From NCBI GenBank assembly GCA_002779075.1, contig PEXK01000006.1, positions 1 to 5,035 of the forward strand: a stretch of DNA of 5,035 bases. The letters run 5' to 3'. The position numbers were made by a program, and so were the translations under genes. This document shows positions 551-5,035 of the stretch, piece after piece. The DNA comes from Candidatus Diapherotrites archaeon CG08_land_8_20_14_0_20_30_16 (GTDB lineage Archaea; Iainarchaeota; Iainarchaeia; Iainarchaeales; 0-14-0-20-30-16). Within the stretch, counting starts at the first letter, position 1, and every line of letters begins with the position of its first letter. The notes beneath the pieces were generated by a model. That model searched no databases. It saw only the letters and a list, made by a program, of their open reading frames with translations, and was not told where the DNA came from.

Positions 551-3500
551 ATGAGTTTTTTTCATGATTTGTATTATAAAATGGAAAACGGATATTATGC
601 TTTTCTAGACAAGCTGGATAAAGCAGGAATACATGTTTACAGAGTTGTTGATCCTATAGATAAAGTAGTTCCTTCATTTGTTTTGATTTTGATTATTTTG
701 GGGCTAATTGTTATTGGTCTAATTTTGTATTTTGCGTTTTTATCTGGATTAAATCCTGCAGGATTGCCGGTAACTGTTTATTTTTTAGATAAATCTGACA
801 AAGCAGTAAGTGGTGTGCAAGTAGATTACGCAATAAACGATGGCGAGGTTTTAAGTGGAAAAACTACTGCTCTCGGGACAATTAGTTTTGAAGCTGCAAA
901 AGGCGATATTGTTGATCTCACTATAACTGCGGGTAATGATGAAGAGAAAAAGCAAATTGTAATTGCAGATGATCTCAATTATACTATTAAATTATTGTTT
1001 TCACTTGCAAAAGATAGTGTGAAATTCAGTGTAAATACTATTGATGCATCGCCTCTAAAACCAGTTAATATTGATTTCTGGTGCTCAAATCCTAATGTTA
1101 CTCCTCCAGAGAGTATTTCAAATACAACAGAAACAAATTATGTTATTGATGTAGATCCAGAATGTGGAGAATTGAGTGTTGATGTCAAATCAAATGATTA
1201 TGAAGAATTTGTTGATGTATTAACTGATGATTATAGTATTAATTTGAAGCCTTTAACTTATGGTGGAAAAGGATCAGTTGTTTTAGCTGTTTATGATTTC
1301 AGTGGCCAGCCAGTTAATGATTATAGTGCTCTTTTATCGCAGAATGGGATACCAATTAATACACAAAGTTCTTATGGTACTAATATTGTTTCTTTTACAG
1401 GTTTGGCAAGTGCAACATATTCAATTAGTGTAACTAAAGCAACTTATTTCACAGGAACCATCCCAGTAACTGTAACTGATAAAACAGAAAGTATTACCTT
1501 AAAATTAGAGAGAGATTTGAATGGAATGACTGGCGATTTATTGATTTCTCTTTTAGATGTTTCAGGGAAAGCTGTTCCCGGTGCTAAAGTTACAGTTTAC
1601 AAACTGAAAGAAGGAAACCAAGGCGATGTTTTAGAGAGCAAAGATTCTGATTTAAATGGCAAGGTGAGCATAAGTGTGCCTGACCTGTCTTTGAAATATT
1701 GGGTTAATGTTACTAAAGCTGGTTTTAAAACAGCAAATAAAAAAGAAGTCAATCCCAAAGAGCCGTTATTAATTGTTATGCAAGTTCCAGGAACAGAAAG
1801 AACAATGAAAATAAGAGTTATTGATGCAGATAAAAACCCAGTTAATAATGTAAGAATTGCATTGTATGATGACAAAGATAATGTTTTTGATCCCTTGTTT
1901 GGAATTACTAATTTAGATGGCAATGCAGAAAAACAAGTAGAAGAAGGCAAGTATAAAGCATATGTTTACAAAGGACAATTCTCAGGGTTTGGAGAATTAT
2001 TTACCTTTGATATTTTGGTTGAACCAAAAGATGGTTTTGACAGCACAGTTACTTTAGGTCTGCCTAAAGCAGCATGGGAGCTGACTCTTAAGGATAAGTT
2101 TGGAATGCCTGTTCCAAATGCATTAATTGAATTGTATGATGCATACAATGATTTCCCAATTGATGTTGGTGCAAAGTTTGCCACTCCGCAAGGATTATTC
2201 AGTGTTGCTAATTTAAGAGCAGACAGAAAATATTTTTGTGTGATAAAAGCACCAAGCTTTGAAAATTATGTTACTCTTTCCAGATTCCTGGATCCAAATA
2301 CAACAACACAGGAAACATTAATTCTGGAAAAAGAAAAATTAGACAAAAACCCTAAAATAGAATTTTTAGGTTTAGAAGATTCTGAAGGAAAGCATGCAAT
2401 TAAATTGGCACCAAATAATTTGTATAAGGCAAAATTCAAAATTAGTTTGCCAAAAGGCACAGATTATACAAAAGTATATGCAAACTTCTTAGCTGGTGAC
2501 AAAGATATTGTTGAAAAAGAAATGTTTTATATTGATAAAGTGAATTTGAGTGCAAATGCAACATTAGTTAAGGGGCGATCTTATTTAGCTGGTGATTTTG
2601 ATAAAAGCATTGGCGTTCCACAAACTCTTTTGGAGACAAGAGGATTTGAAAATGAAGTGTTGCAGGGTATGCCATTTGAAGACCAGACTAAATGGGTTCA
2701 ATTAGGCTGGAACCTCACACAAATAAAGAGTGATGAAGTGTCATCATTGACAAGTGGCCAATTATTTGTTGATGTTTATTTGCAAATCAAAGCAGGAACT
2801 TTGGATGATACATCTTTGCAGTTCTTTTATAATTTGTATGCAATAGGCACTCCACAAAAAGAAAGTGAAAAAGAGTTTACCTATCCTTTAGATTCAAAAG
2901 CAGAGAAGAACCAATCAAGTCTTTTCAATTCCAAGAACTGGCAATTTTTTAGTGTTGGCGAAGGACAGCAAACCTGTGATGATAAATTCTGCTTTGAATT
3001 AACTGTTTTAGATTTAGATGAGCAGTTAAAAACATCAGTAAGCGGTGACACGCCATATATTGCAACTTTAGGCAAAACATATAAAATGCAATTTAATTTG
3101 ATGAATAATAATTTAGTTCCATTAACTCATTACAGATTAATATTAGAAAATCCGCAACAGAATATGCATCTGGTTAAAGGGAAAATATATTCTGCATTAA
3201 ACAGCGAGACAAACCTGCCTGTTGCTGACAAAAATTTTGATGATTTTTTCAAATATGTGTTTAGAGCAGAAGAAGGGGATCAGGTATTGAGCCAGAATAT
3301 GGTTTTGAAAGGAGATTTAGATTTCTTGCCCCTTGTTGAAGGCACAGGCTCTTTCAAAATAACTGTTATTGAAGACAAAACACCAATTTATAATAAAGAA
3401 TTTTTTGTGAGTGTTGTTGCAAATAAAGACCTCAATGTTGAATTGGAGCCAAATGTAATTCCATCATATGTTGATACAAGAATAAAATTTACAGTTACTG

Positions 3501-5035
3501 ATGCACAAACAGGTGCATTTTTGAAAGATGCTAAAGTAATGATTGTTGATGTTTATAAAACTGTTTTAGCAGAAAATATTACTAATAAGTTTGGTGTGTC
3601 AGATATTAATCTAGCTGCACAATTACCAAATATAGATTTAAAGTTAAAAGTATACAAAGAAAATTATAAAGCATACGAAAAGAATTTGAAAACAAATGCA
3701 AAATTTATTTTAATTGAACCAGAAGAATTGAAAGTAAGTGCAATAGTTTCAGATGGTTATGGTCTCGGCAAATTAGCCCTTAAAAATATCTCAGAATTAC
3801 CAGTTAAAATATCTGAAATTTATTTAGAAGGCAATTTTGATGAGTATGTAAACATACAACAAACTAATGAATATTTAACTAAAACAGCACTTAATAAAAC
3901 AATAGATAAAGAACATGAATTTTCTCTGCCAGTAAATGTAAGTTTGACAACAATTGCTGAGTTTTTGAAAGAGAATAGAGAGTATCCTGCGGAATTAACA
4001 ATTAGAGTAATACCAGAATCAGAATTTAAAATAGTAACAAAACCATGGGAATACAAAGTGCCTGTTACTCTGCAAATAATGCTGGGCAAAGGTTTGGACA
4101 GTTTAGACTGTTTGGGTATTGATGTCAAGAAATCAGAGTTGGTTTCAACTGGCGGAAAAAATGATCAGGACAGTATTAATATTGTAAACGGATGCACAGT
4201 AAATAACAAGCCTGTTAAGTTGGTTAATTTAGAAGCAAAGGTTAATTGGAAAGGCAATGCTTTGGGTTCTTTTACATTTAACAGAAATGAGCAGGTATCA
4301 AGATTGCAAAGTGCATATTATGTTACTTTGAACAATAAAATGACTGAGCACGAAAAAGATATGTTTGTTGTAGATTTCTCACCTGTAAATGGAAGAATAG
4401 CAGGCACAGGTAGTGCTGAGATTCTAATTAGAGGCGGATATTTTACTGATTCAGGAATACAATTTGTTGAGAAGAAAGTAGATTATAGTGTAAGTGTTGT
4501 TAATATGTTAGCCTGCATAAGTTATGTTTTCCCAAATAATGAAGTTGATTTAATTTCTGTACCACGCGACCAGAAAGGTAATTTCACAATAAAGAATGAA
4601 TGTGATACAGTAATAGATCTTAAATTAGGTGTTTTGCCTGATCAATATTTAGATGTGCGACCTGTTGAGTTGAGTATACCTGGAAAAACAGAGAAGCAGG
4701 TAGTAATTGATCCAAAAGCATCACCTATAGGAGTATATTTGTTAGAGGTCAGGGGCAAGGTGCCTAAGCAGCACTTTGAAGGTGTTAAAGTAGGTAATGA
4801 GGCTCTTCGTATATTTATTAGCCCTTTGTCAGATGATTGTCTGGTTTTAGATAATTATGAATTCAATTTAATGGGTACTGAAGGAAAAGCAACTGAGCGT
4901 TACACATATTTAATTAATAGATGTTATTACAAAGATTTGAAAGCAGTATACAAATTAGATGTTATTGCCGGGGGTTTTGGCAACTCAACATGCAGTTCTG
5001 AGAACTGGTCTGGTTTAATGGGAACAATGATCCCA
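551..5035 (+). CDS. Giant membrane-anchored multi-domain surface (adhesin- or S-layer-like) protein, 3'-partial. At least 1495 aa lie in the window and the frame continues beyond the edge.
   Basis: My hand translation from ATG 551 gives 1495 sense codons (4485 nt, exactly in frame with base 5035) and no TAA, TAG or TGA. In the same interval the longest ORF listed for the opposite strand is 117 aa. The start is supported by the SD-like motif. The protein begins MSFFHDLYYKMENGYYAFLDKLDKAGIHVYRVVDPIDKVVPSFVLILIILGLIVIGLILYFAFL and ends at the window edge with ...GGFGNSTCSSENWSGLMGTMIP. Trp is encoded by TGG (9 times), so the standard code suffices. Confidence 0.93.
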   Translation, partial: MSFFHDLYYKMENGYYAFLDKLDKAGIHVYRVVDPIDKVVPSFVLILIILGLIVIGLILYFAFLSGLNPAGLPVTVYFLDKSDKAVSGVQVDYAINDGEVLSGKTTALGTISFEAAKGDIVDLTITAGNDEEKKQIVIADDLNYTIKLLFSLAKDSVKFSVNTIDASPLKPVNIDFWCSNPNVTPPESISNTTETNYVIDVDPECGELSVDVKSNDYEEFVDVLTDDYSINLKPLTYGGKGSVVLAVYDFSGQPVNDYSALLSQNGIPINTQSSYGTNIVSFTGLASATYSISVTKATYFTGTIPVTVTDKTESITLKLERDLNGMTGDLLISLLDVSGKAVPGAKVTVYKLKEGNQGDVLESKDSDLNGKVSISVPDLSLKYWVNVTKAGFKTANKKEVNPKEPLLIVMQVPGTERTMKIRVIDADKNPVNNVRIALYDDKDNVFDPLFGITNLDGNAEKQVEEGKYKAYVYKGQFSGFGELFTFDILVEPKDGFDSTVTLGLPKAAWELTLKDKFGMPVPNALIELYDAYNDFPIDVGAKFATPQGLFSVANLRADRKYFCVIKAPSFENYVTLSRFLDPNTTTQETLILEKEKLDKNPKIEFLGLEDSEGKHAIKLAPNNLYKAKFKISLPKGTDYTKVYANFLAGDKDIVEKEMFYIDKVNLSANATLVKGRSYLAGDFDKSIGVPQTLLETRGFENEVLQGMPFEDQTKWVQLGWNLTQIKSDEVSSLTSGQLFVDVYLQIKAGTLDDTSLQFFYNLYAIGTPQKESEKEFTYPLDSKAEKNQSSLFNSKNWQFFSVGEGQQTCDDKFCFELTVLDLDEQLKTSVSGDTPYIATLGKTYKMQFNLMNNNLVPLTHYRLILENPQQNMHLVKGKIYSALNSETNLPVADKNFDDFFKYVFRAEEGDQVLSQNMVLKGDLDFLPLVEGTGSFKITVIEDKTPIYNKEFFVSVVANKDLNVELEPNVIPSYVDTRIKFTVTDAQTGAFLKDAKVMIVDVYKTVLAENITNKFGVSDINLAAQLPNIDLKLKVYKENYKAYEKNLKTNAKFILIEPEELKVSAIVSDGYGLGKLALKNISELPVKISEIYLEGNFDEYVNIQQTNEYLTKTALNKTIDKEHEFSLPVNVSLTTIAEFLKENREYPAELTIRVIPESEFKIVTKPWEYKVPVTLQIMLGKGLDSLDCLGIDVKKSELVSTGGKNDQDSINIVNGCTVNNKPVKLVNLEAKVNWKGNALGSFTFNRNEQVSRLQSAYYVTLNNKMTEHEKDMFVVDFSPVNGRIAGTGSAEILIRGGYFTDSGIQFVEKKVDYSVSVVNMLACISYVFPNNEVDLISVPRDQKGNFTIKNECDTVIDLKLGVLPDQYLDVRPVELSIPGKTEKQVVIDPKASPIGVYLLEVRGKVPKQHFEGVKVGNEALRIFISPLSDDCLVLDNYEFNLMGTEGKATERYTYLINRCYYKDLKAVYKLDVIAGGFGNSTCSSENWSGLMGTMIP
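677..742 (+). other. Single predicted transmembrane helix (signal-anchor) of the giant protein, residues ~43-64.
   Basis: FVLILIILGLIVIGLILYFAFL is 22 consecutive uncharged, mostly aliphatic residues. It follows a 42-aa mixed-charge segment, which is too long for a classical signal-peptide n-region. It is followed by SGLNPAGLP and then beta-rich domains. Confidence 0.8.
767..2299 (+). other. Region encoding five divergent carboxypeptidase-regulatory-like (CarboxypepD_reg / transthyretin-like beta-sandwich) repeats, with one Cys-pair module inserted after the first. Boundaries are approximate.
   Basis: Approximate repeats are R1 767-988, R2 1265-1510, R3 1529-1765, R4 1802-2026 and R5 2069-2299. 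They share a pattern of h-x-h-x-h-x-D-x-x-G/x-x-P-h-x-x-A-x-h-x-h, then T/N-x-x-G-x-h-x-h, then Y-x-h-x-h-x-K-x-G/x-F/Y. Examples are LLISLLDVSGKAVPGAKVTVYKL...DLNGKVSISVP...YWVNVTKAGFKT, MKIRVIDADKNPVNNVRIALYD...NLDGNAEKQVEEGKYKAYVYKGQF and WELTLKDKFGMPVPNALIELYD...TPQGLFSVANLRADRKYFCVIKAPSFE. The family assignment comes from pattern recognition, not a search. Confidence 0.6.
3473..3706 (+). other. Sixth, isolated carboxypeptidase-regulatory-like repeat.
   Basis: RIKFTVTDAQTGAFLKDAKVMIVDVYKTVLAENITNKFGVSDINLAAQLPNIDLKLKVYKENYKAYEKNL follows the same h-x-h-x-h-x-D...A-x-V-x-h...G-x-h-x-h...h-x-h-x-K-x-x-Y pattern as R1-R5. Confidence 0.5.
3716..5035 (+). other. Series of ~108-135 aa Ig-like beta-sandwich modules (CARDB / PapD / ASH-like by pattern). 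The last three open with a conserved Cys pair and the last is cut by the window edge.
   Basis: Approximate modules are M1 3716-4078, M2 4103-4507, M3 4508-4831 and M4 4832-5035+. There is a recurrent early-strand motif h-x-h-x-N-x-[S/C]: LALKNIS, INIVNGC, FTIKNEC, YLINRC. Cys pairs are at codons 4109/4193, 4514/4601 and 4838/4922. Later in the modules come stretches such as RPVELSIPGKTEKQVVIDPKASPIGVYLLEVRG, which are typical of Ig-like folds. Confidence 0.45.

Follow-up and report, generated by a model that had tools for sequence, protein, structure and literature searches.

Three cysteine-bracketed ASH-like modules at the end of a predicted giant surface protein of a Diapherotrites archaeon

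The locus and its cysteine-bracketed modules

The stretch of DNA analysed here (the window, 5,035 nucleotides) is the entire contig PEXK01000006.1 of Candidatus Diapherotrites archaeon CG08_land_8_20_14_0_20_30_16. It is AT-rich, with a GC content of about 32%, and nearly all of it is one reading frame (frame 2). This open reading frame (ORF) starts at an ATG at 551, with a purine-rich AAAAAAGGAAGAGG stretch in the short spacer just 5' of it, and is still open at base 5035 after 1,495 codons without a stop. We read it (551–5035, + strand) as the partial gene of a giant surface protein, probably anchored in the membrane, on the basis of the open frame and its start codon, of a homologue of 1788 amino acids that is 57% identical to it (P0002), and of related proteins from metagenome-assembled genomes (MAGs) of Candidatus Diapherotrites and Candidatus Micrarchaeota. 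Our subject is the last part of the frame, 4103–5035, where three successive immunoglobulin (Ig)-like modules, M1 to M3, each carry a pair of cysteines. Residue 1 is the ATG at 551, and for what lies beyond base 5035 the homologue loci L001, L004 and L005 serve as stand-ins.

All three modules lie on the + strand, and they differ in extent. M1 (4097–4504; residues 1183–1318, about 136 amino acids) is modelled as a complete β-sandwich and carries C1187 (nt 4109–4111) and C1215 (nt 4193–4195). M2 (4505–4828; residues 1319–1426, 108 amino acids), modelled as an ASH/PapD-like β-sandwich, carries C1322 (nt 4514–4516) and C1351 (nt 4601–4603), while M3 (4829–4990; residues 1427–1480, about 54 amino acids), a half-module with strands A, A', B and C only, carries C1430 (nt 4838–4840) and C1458 (nt 4922–4924). 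The context of each pair is C-h-x-h…h-x-h-x-N-x-C. The trio is preceded by a further Ig-like module, M0 (3704–4084, + strand; residues about 1052–1178), which has no cysteine and in which the h-x-h-x-N-x-[T/S] strand reads LALKNIS. It is followed by the start of another segment (4991–5035, + strand), cut by the window edge, which contains C1481 and NWSGLMGTMIP… with its conserved Trp. A preliminary description of this DNA, made from the sequence alone, had listed the six paired cysteines and the Cys-less LALKNIS module, and counting from the ATG at 551 we find every one of them where it was placed.

A strict pattern, C[LIVMF]x[LIVMFY]…[h]x[LIVM]xNxC, matches these three sites and no others in the 1,495 residues. 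The protein has 12 cysteines in total, and four of the 11 gaps between consecutive cysteines measure 27–29 residues, the fourth being that of C178/C205 near the N-terminus. When 12 cysteines were placed at random 200,000 times, the probability of at least four such gaps was 3e-5, and that of at least three was 9e-4. The spacing within the pairs is thus non-random, and to that extent the 'regular spacing' of the preliminary description stands; the modules themselves are not strictly periodic, being 136, 108 and 54 amino acids long with start-to-start distances of 135 and 108 residues.

Nor are the modules close copies of one another. BLAST between them gave M1–M3 matches at E~0.03–0.1 over 30 amino acids, and no match between M1 and M2 or between M2 and M3. 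Profile–profile comparison with hhalign, using sub-alignments of about 135–152 homologues, aligned M1 with M2 at E=3.6e-4 and M1 with M3 at E=1.4e-3, with both cysteines in register in each case, and M0 with M2 at E=0.011. Scans of the DNA with Tandem Repeats Finder and for direct repeats found no relevant repeat at the modules. On these scans and the marginal BLAST matches we rejected recent tandem duplication. Our conclusion is that the modules belong to a single fold class but diverged long ago, and do not form an array of recent origin.

Conservation and covariation of the cysteine pairs

A word-indexed homologue search returned six relatives, among them P0002 at full length, and then two; three of the six are NCBI MAG proteins labelled Candidatus Diapherotrites. 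It was an exhaustive HMMER search that revealed the family. A profile of residues 1040–1495 found 313 representative clusters (50% identity) at E≤1e-3, 113 of them at E≤1e-30. The members are collinear, mostly 2300–2900 amino acids long, and match the profile at about residues 1000–1450; those that have names are 'hypothetical' or 'carboxypeptidase regulatory-like domain-containing' proteins of Candidatus Diapherotrites and Candidatus Micrarchaeota MAGs. The closest genome match, L005 from a Candidatus Diapherotrites MAG, is 68% identical over the module region. A scan of genome contigs with one exact peptide pattern gave two loci, and is not a measure of distribution.

Conservation was counted in 174 matched stretches from 156 proteins, representatives less than 50% identical to each other, aligned to the profile. 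Cysteine is found at C1187 in 150/152 homologues, at C1215 in 153/153, at C1322 in 153/153 and at C1351 in 148/148. Together with N1213 (Asn in 153/153) and G1394, these four cysteines are the best-conserved columns of the 455-residue region. The corresponding Asn of M3, N1456, is kept in 98% of homologues, and the M2 equivalent, N1349, is Asn in only ~41%. In the Cys-less module M0, N1079 is kept in 96%, and the residue two places on is Thr or Ser in about two thirds.

Counting the cysteines as pairs, both members of pair 1 are present in 150 proteins and the second alone in two, where the first has become Ala or Leu. For pair 2, 130 proteins have both cysteines and none has a single one. Pair 3 (C1430/C1458) behaves differently in that it can be absent: 87 proteins have both cysteines, 51 have neither, and one has a single cysteine. 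The most common replacement of pair 3 is Tyr/Met (17/52 cases), and because there are 29 different replacement combinations overall, we take the pair to have been lost several times independently. A half-module hidden Markov model (HMM) run over the 156 proteins found about three instances per protein, of which 339 have both cysteines, 34 have none and five have one, four of these five being explained by alignment gaps or truncations. In M2 the number of cysteines is even (two or four) in 129/139 homologues.

The all-or-none behaviour of pair 3 strongly suggests that its two cysteines are in physical contact, and that contact is most likely an intradomain disulfide. Conserved pairs 1 and 2, and a third pair that is gained or lost jointly, are what would be predicted for a disulfide that joins the start of strand A to the end of strand B. 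Conservation in homologues had been proposed beforehand as a check on the pairing; across about 150 homologues, pairs 1 and 2 proved invariant or nearly so, and pair 3 was lost as a unit.

About 40% of homologues have an insertion in M2 that carries an extra conserved Cys pair, …LC[RK].D.GC[SA]GG… (for example, residues 1310–1326 of P0004), bringing the module to four cysteines. The insertion is absent from the window protein.

Fold of the modules

A first AlphaFold2 model, built from an alignment of five sequences, was mediocre (predicted local distance difference test score, pLDDT, 60); M0 was beta-rich in the first model, with pLDDT ~60–70. With an alignment of 22 sequences, M1 was modelled at pLDDT ~86–96 and M2 at ~85–94, both as all-β domains, and M3 at ~40–50. 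Secondary structure assigned with DSSP places C1187 (model residue 7) directly before strand A of M1 (8–12) and C1215 (model residue 35) after strand B (25–33). The arrangement in M2 is the same, the first cysteine (model residue 142) preceding strand A (143–146) and the second (171) following strand B (163–169), so that the second cysteine sits two residues after strand B in both models. An Ig-like sandwich has strands A and B side by side and antiparallel, so that the start of A adjoins the end of B. In the M1 model the lengths of the strands would allow C7 to face C35.

Compared with the PDB by Foldseek, the better model matched 9ijj_E, 7sqc_F1, and the crystal structures of the SPD-2 domain of CEP192 (9fh8_A and 7ptb) at E~1e-9 and probability 1.00, in alignments of about 245–297 columns. 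With both models, ciliary central-apparatus ASH proteins (7sqc, 9ijj, 7som) came out on top, at E 1e-9 to 1e-11. Whole-model TM-scores to ASH structures are low (0.2–0.43) because the relative domain orientations differ. Set against solved ASH domains, the M1 and M2 models have the same Ig-like β-sandwich fold. The SPD-2 domain of CEP192 has been described as a pair of ASH domains set close together (PMC11922060).

At sequence level, no match of the modules to a curated family reached threshold. In the window protein, Pfam Cep192_D6 (PF22076) scores 11–15 bits on M2 (residues 1340–1391) against a cutoff of 35; it also matches M2 below threshold in 4/5 and 7/22 homologue segments, with a best E of 6.4e-5. 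Cep192_D3 (PF22067) gave sub-threshold matches in 4/22 homologue segments, and CFAP65 Ig, ASH (PF15780) and CARDB gave single or double ones. M1 and M3 of the window protein had no Pfam match to the ASH/Cep192 families, neither Pfam nor NCBIfam returned a curated family above threshold at residues 1050–1495, and sequence-profile searches of the PDB produced only noise at E~1.6. With Pfam (window protein, and 5 plus 22 homologue segments), NCBIfam and PDB profiles all below threshold, we rejected a curated-family assignment. In alignments of major sperm protein (MSP) and ASH domains, a conserved Asn ends the second main strand in an h-x-h-x-N-x-small motif.

Thus the modules are ASH/PapD-like at fold level and lie outside every curated sequence family. 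That they are Ig-like, as first proposed from the sequence, agrees with the M1 and M2 β-sandwiches (pLDDT ~90) and with ASH/PapD-like domains as the top Foldseek matches. The accompanying proposal that they form no named domain family is right for sequence, where no match reaches threshold, but not for fold, where they fall within the ASH/PapD-like superfamily.

A disulfide between strands A and B, and the alternatives

Our preferred explanation, to which we assign a probability of roughly 0.68, is that the ectodomain ends in three ASH-like modules, each clamped by a disulfide between strands A and B. The giant DPANN (Candidatus Diapherotrites-like) surface protein would then have a single transmembrane helix, at its N-terminus, as its membrane anchor, and positions 4103–5035 would code for the last, C-terminal part of its ectodomain, in which ~1000 residues of CarboxypepD_reg/Big_1-type and other β-domains would be followed by the four Ig-like modules of the ASH/PapD class. 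In M1–M3, the cysteine just before strand A and the second cysteine, 28–29 residues on and two residues past the Asn that ends strand B, would form an intradomain disulfide clamping the N-terminal strand onto the sheet. Outside the cell, such a clamp may stiffen the modules and protect them from proteases, from unfolding and from having their N-terminal strand peeled away. After the trio would come the conserved Trp, a small-residue-rich helix and a variable tail; in place of the tail, most relatives would have a fused C-terminal domain of ~800–1000 amino acids, which in this lineage would be the product of the next gene. What the data show directly are the sequence features with their conservation and covariation, the fold class, the constant number of modules and the fusion link; that the cysteines form disulfides, that the modules lie outside the cell and that the clamp acts mechanically is inferred. 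The whole protein most likely serves an episymbiotic nano-archaeon as a scaffold at its surface or as an adhesin, judging from its architecture only.

Several points weigh against this explanation. Many DPANN archaea live in anoxic settings. M3 is too short for a full domain and its pLDDT is ~40–50; given this low model confidence, it may fold only in context. Membership of the ASH/Cep192 sequence families falls under the Pfam gathering scores. The protein has 16 N-x-S/T sequons where ~12.5 are expected, which lends no real support to glycosylation or exposure. The nominal Fisher P of 1.6e-37 for the covariation overstates the evidence, as the counts are phylogenetically non-independent, and the disulfide is deduced from conservation, covariation and strand topology, with the model read as pLDDT and DSSP.

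A bond between chains would also account for the joint loss of paired cysteines. Here the cysteine at strand A of one chain would be linked to the cysteine at strand B of a neighbour or partner, locking a surface oligomer or lattice, and there is both a conserved partner gene, fused in most relatives, and a half-module, M3, that might need a partner. However, the confident M1 and M2 models put both cysteines at the flanks of A and B of the same β-sandwich, and Tyr/Met, as the commonest substitute for pair 3, fits a packing contact within one molecule. We therefore consider intermolecular disulfides unlikely. We are more sceptical still that the cysteines serve as metal ligands (for example, for Zn or Fe shared between modules) or as redox-active thiols. 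The cysteines are invariant, the extra M2 pair (LC.xD.GC.GG) of many homologues makes four per module, and anoxic habitats disfavour disulfides, all of which would suit such a role; yet the window protein has only two cysteines per module, no His, Asp or Glu partner is found among the top-conserved columns, pair 3 can give way to hydrophobic residues while the rest of the module is kept, and the Pfam and NCBIfam scans gave no match to a metal-binding family.

Three successive modules share the C…NxC bracket, and the window ends inside the ORF; the preliminary description regarded the array as still repeating, with more copies perhaps to follow. On such a reading, Ig-like repeats that were duplicated recently would run on in tandem beyond the window, without a fixed end, and form a fibre or an adhesin stalk whose copy number varies. 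The homologues speak firmly against this. In P0002, P0007, P0008, P0004 and the L005 ORF the third Cys module is the last one, as it is in all full-length homologues, and by the half-module HMM the number of modules is constant at three across about 150 of them. Unequal lengths (136, 108 and 54 amino acids), hhalign E-values of only about 1e-3 to 1e-4 and the lack of DNA repeats are likewise not those of a variable-copy tandem-repeat adhesin or fibre. We consider an open-ended array very improbable; the trio appears, from the homologues, to be a fixed and ancient architectural element, not an expanding repeat. The term 'fibre' gains no support either: the protein is read as N-terminally membrane-anchored and multidomain, and no test that we ran pointed to a polymerising subunit.

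The segment after M3

Past the second cysteine of M3, homologues have one more β-strand (…V-x-V-x-V…), sometimes with a lone cysteine, which in the window protein is C1481. W1486 is kept in 81% of homologues and is followed by a Gly/Ala/Ser-rich segment of ~20 residues. The best Kyte-Doolittle window of this segment has a median of 1.23 and starts ~24 residues after the last cysteine; it reaches at least 1.6 in 17% of homologues. With hydropathy this marginal, the segment does not stand out as a clear transmembrane helix. The segment could be a helix for glycine-zipper pairing, or a weak transmembrane helix, to judge by its composition. The L005 homologue stops 85 residues past its equivalent of C1458, and P0002 runs on for ~330 low-complexity residues past module 3.

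The N-terminal part of the protein

The protein begins with a conserved segment of ~42 amino acids (551–676, + strand), presumed to be cytoplasmic. In an alignment of five family members (alignment A1), its invariant columns are Y16, L19, D20, Y30, D34-P35-I36-D37, V39, P41 and S42. Residues 1–42 (M..D.YY.LE..YY..LDKID..GI.IY..IDPID.V.PSF) are among the best-conserved parts of the family, even at 20–25% overall identity, and the Pfam scan of the window protein gave no match to them. These residues directly precede the transmembrane helix. A cleaved signal peptide was rejected for them on account of their excess length and conservation; they may instead act in the cytoplasm as a motif for docking or sorting.

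Residues 43–61, FVLILIILGLIVIGLILYF (677–733, + strand), form a strong predicted transmembrane helix, with a mean of 3.25 in the 19-residue Kyte-Doolittle window and a counterpart in every homologue examined. Some 1430 residues lie C-terminal to it. These include a CarboxypepD_reg domain in the presumed ectodomain stalk (1556–1753, + strand; residues 336–401; Pfam PF13620, 65.8 bits against a cutoff of 32.3) and weaker Pfam matches to Big_1/bMG3. The extracytoplasmic location put forward in the preliminary description is plausible in view of this order, a strong N-terminal transmembrane helix and then domains of the CarboxypepD_reg/Big_1 type.

Two further Cys pairs lie in this part of the protein: C178/C205 (nt 1082–1084 and 1163–1165; F-x-C-S-N-P…P-E-C-G, 27 apart) and C809/C814 (nt 2975–2977 and 2990–2992; C-D-D-K-F-C). 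C178, C809 and C814 are invariant columns among the five aligned family members, and C205 has an equivalent in all five, offset in P0004. A lone cysteine, C563, is not conserved.

Gene neighbourhood

L001, L004 and L005 have a common gene order, namely a paralogous giant protein, the homologue of the window protein, a protein of ~830 amino acids, and small genes. The 5' end of the window fits this order. The last ~157 codons of an upstream gene (2–475, + strand, stop at 473–475) would encode the C-terminus of a paralogous giant surface protein, being 34% identical (E=2e-21) to the last 150 residues of the 2428-amino-acid protein upstream of P0002 in L001. That paralogue (L001 69–7355) has Cys-bracketed modules of its own, including 1140/1161 and 1602/1629. 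Because the upstream giant protein gives this match and shares the Cys-bracketed modules, we conclude that the locus encodes tandem paralogues.

The downstream neighbour of ~830 amino acids (L001 12802–15315, L005 7624–10113, L004 7346–9829) has an N-terminal, signal-like hydrophobic helix, an extremely Gly/Ala-rich, hydrophobic stretch (e.g. GGLSSGLGTAGALLGGAIFGSMGGMIGGAIGALAGGIAGA) and a large C-terminal domain that ends in …FWWNP…. The Trp and Gly/Ala/Ser-rich helix that follow M3 in the window protein's family are alike in composition to the Gly-rich stretch of this partner. The 837-amino-acid downstream protein is homologous to the C-terminal third of P0004, a protein of 2516 amino acids (E=3e-13 and 2e-7). 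Because of this homology, and because most family members have the length of the fused form, we regard the window protein and its ~830-amino-acid neighbour as the two parts of a chain that is undivided in most relatives. Fused forms have a second hydrophobic segment, at residues 1686–1704 in P0004. For these forms, a self-consistent topology would run from a first transmembrane helix (TM1) through the ectodomain to the post-M3 helix as TM2, then a cytoplasmic linker, TM3 and a second ectodomain. In the same self-consistent scheme, the split would lie within the linker, and TM3 would have become the signal sequence of the partner.

A more ambitious interpretation is that the Cys trio, with the Trp and Gly-rich helix, is the conserved junction of a hitherto undescribed, DPANN-specific surface machine in two parts, in which M3 docks the partner and by which these episymbiotic nano-archaea would attach to their hosts. 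The machine would consist of a giant anchored stalk protein and the partner of ~830 amino acids, fused in most lineages into a chain of 2300–2900 amino acids; M3 might be completed by strand complementation, or by glycine-zipper pairing of helices with the partner. It would be known so far from Diapherotrites and Micrarchaeota MAGs. We think this rather unlikely as a whole and offer it tentatively.

Two other features of the stand-in loci were seen. In L004 (2750–7302, a JGI contig) the gene calls divide the orthologue between two overlapping genes, of 1149 and 368 amino acids (the latter being P0007), and a gene of 909 amino acids lies directly upstream; this division points to a frameshift, a misassembly or a genuine break within the giant gene. 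Small toxin-antitoxin-like gene pairs lie 3' of the cluster, weakly ParE-like in L001 (15457–16006) and HicA/HicB in L004 (14768–15210), and are probably unrelated to the surface-protein genes.

Comparison with known systems

Solved ASH/PapD-like domains, such as the tandem pair in CEP192 SPD-2 (7ptb, 9fh8) and those of ciliary proteins (7sqc, 9ijj), resemble the modules in being all-β sandwiches arranged in tandem, and the h-x-h-x-N strand motif may be common to both. ASH domains are eukaryotic and cytoplasmic, being found at cilia, centrosomes and the Golgi, and we know of none with a conserved cysteine bracket of strands A and B; the window modules, unlike them, are archaeal, presumably extracellular and, on our reading, Cys-clamped. 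Classical immunoglobulin-superfamily domains share with the modules a β-sandwich with one conserved intradomain Cys pair, set in a multidomain stalk that is extracellular, presumably so in the window protein. The canonical Ig disulfide, however, joins strands B and F across the two sheets, with its cysteines about 55–70 residues apart, whereas the pairs described here are 28–29 residues apart and bracket strands A to B. In the window protein and the 22 homologue segments, Pfam returned no match to Ig, I-set or V-set.

Stalk domains of the CarboxypepD_reg, Big_1 and bacterial α2-macroglobulin (MG) types are present in the same protein N-terminal to the modules, and these families gave no match at residues 1050–1495. 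MG-domain proteins and integrin legs were weaker Foldseek matches of the first model; ASH-type structures match the modules better.

Large membrane-associated surface proteins of several Ig-like folds have been described in DPANN archaea, for example MJ1_0160 of Nanobdella aerobiophila; their sequences show little conservation and their functions have yet to be characterised (bioRxiv 10.1101/2023.10.27.564410). The likeness of the window protein to these, as they are described, is one of build. The surface-layer (S-layer) protein of Micrarchaeum harzensis, Micr_00292, is a ~101 kDa protein with a match to PF05123 and almost no sulfur-containing residues (bioRxiv 10.1101/2021.04.28.441871). The window family differs from it in its length of 1500–3000 amino acids, its invariant Cys pairs and its lack of PF05123. 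No S-layer family, PF05123 included, was among the Pfam and NCBIfam hits of the window protein, P0002 and the partner, or among the hits of P0004, for which NCBIfam only was used. We rejected an S-layer identity, the nearly sulfur-free Micrarchaeum protein being of a different kind and no S-layer domain being matched.

Significance

Disulfide-stabilised Ig-like domains and multi-Ig-fold DPANN surface proteins are already commonplace, and the Cys pattern alone, an Ig-like domain with a stabilising disulfide, is a modest finding. What is new is that an archaeal surface protein combines an ASH-type fold with this A–B Cys bracket, together with the near-absolute conservation of that bracket as a trio, and a large unnamed family with split and fused forms.

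Little is understood of the ways in which DPANN archaea attach to their hosts and exploit them, and most of their surface proteins are annotated as 'hypothetical'. Against this background, the family is large, collinear and unnamed, with a fixed Cys trio and a gene-fusion link to a neighbouring gene. The signature C-h-x-h…N-x-C, occurring three times, gives an easy handle for annotation, and M1–M2 (~245 amino acids) form a compact unit that is modelled with high confidence. An ASH/PapD-like fold, familiar chiefly from the cilia and centrosomes of eukaryotes, would here occur in archaea in a predicted extracellular, disulfide-clamped form.

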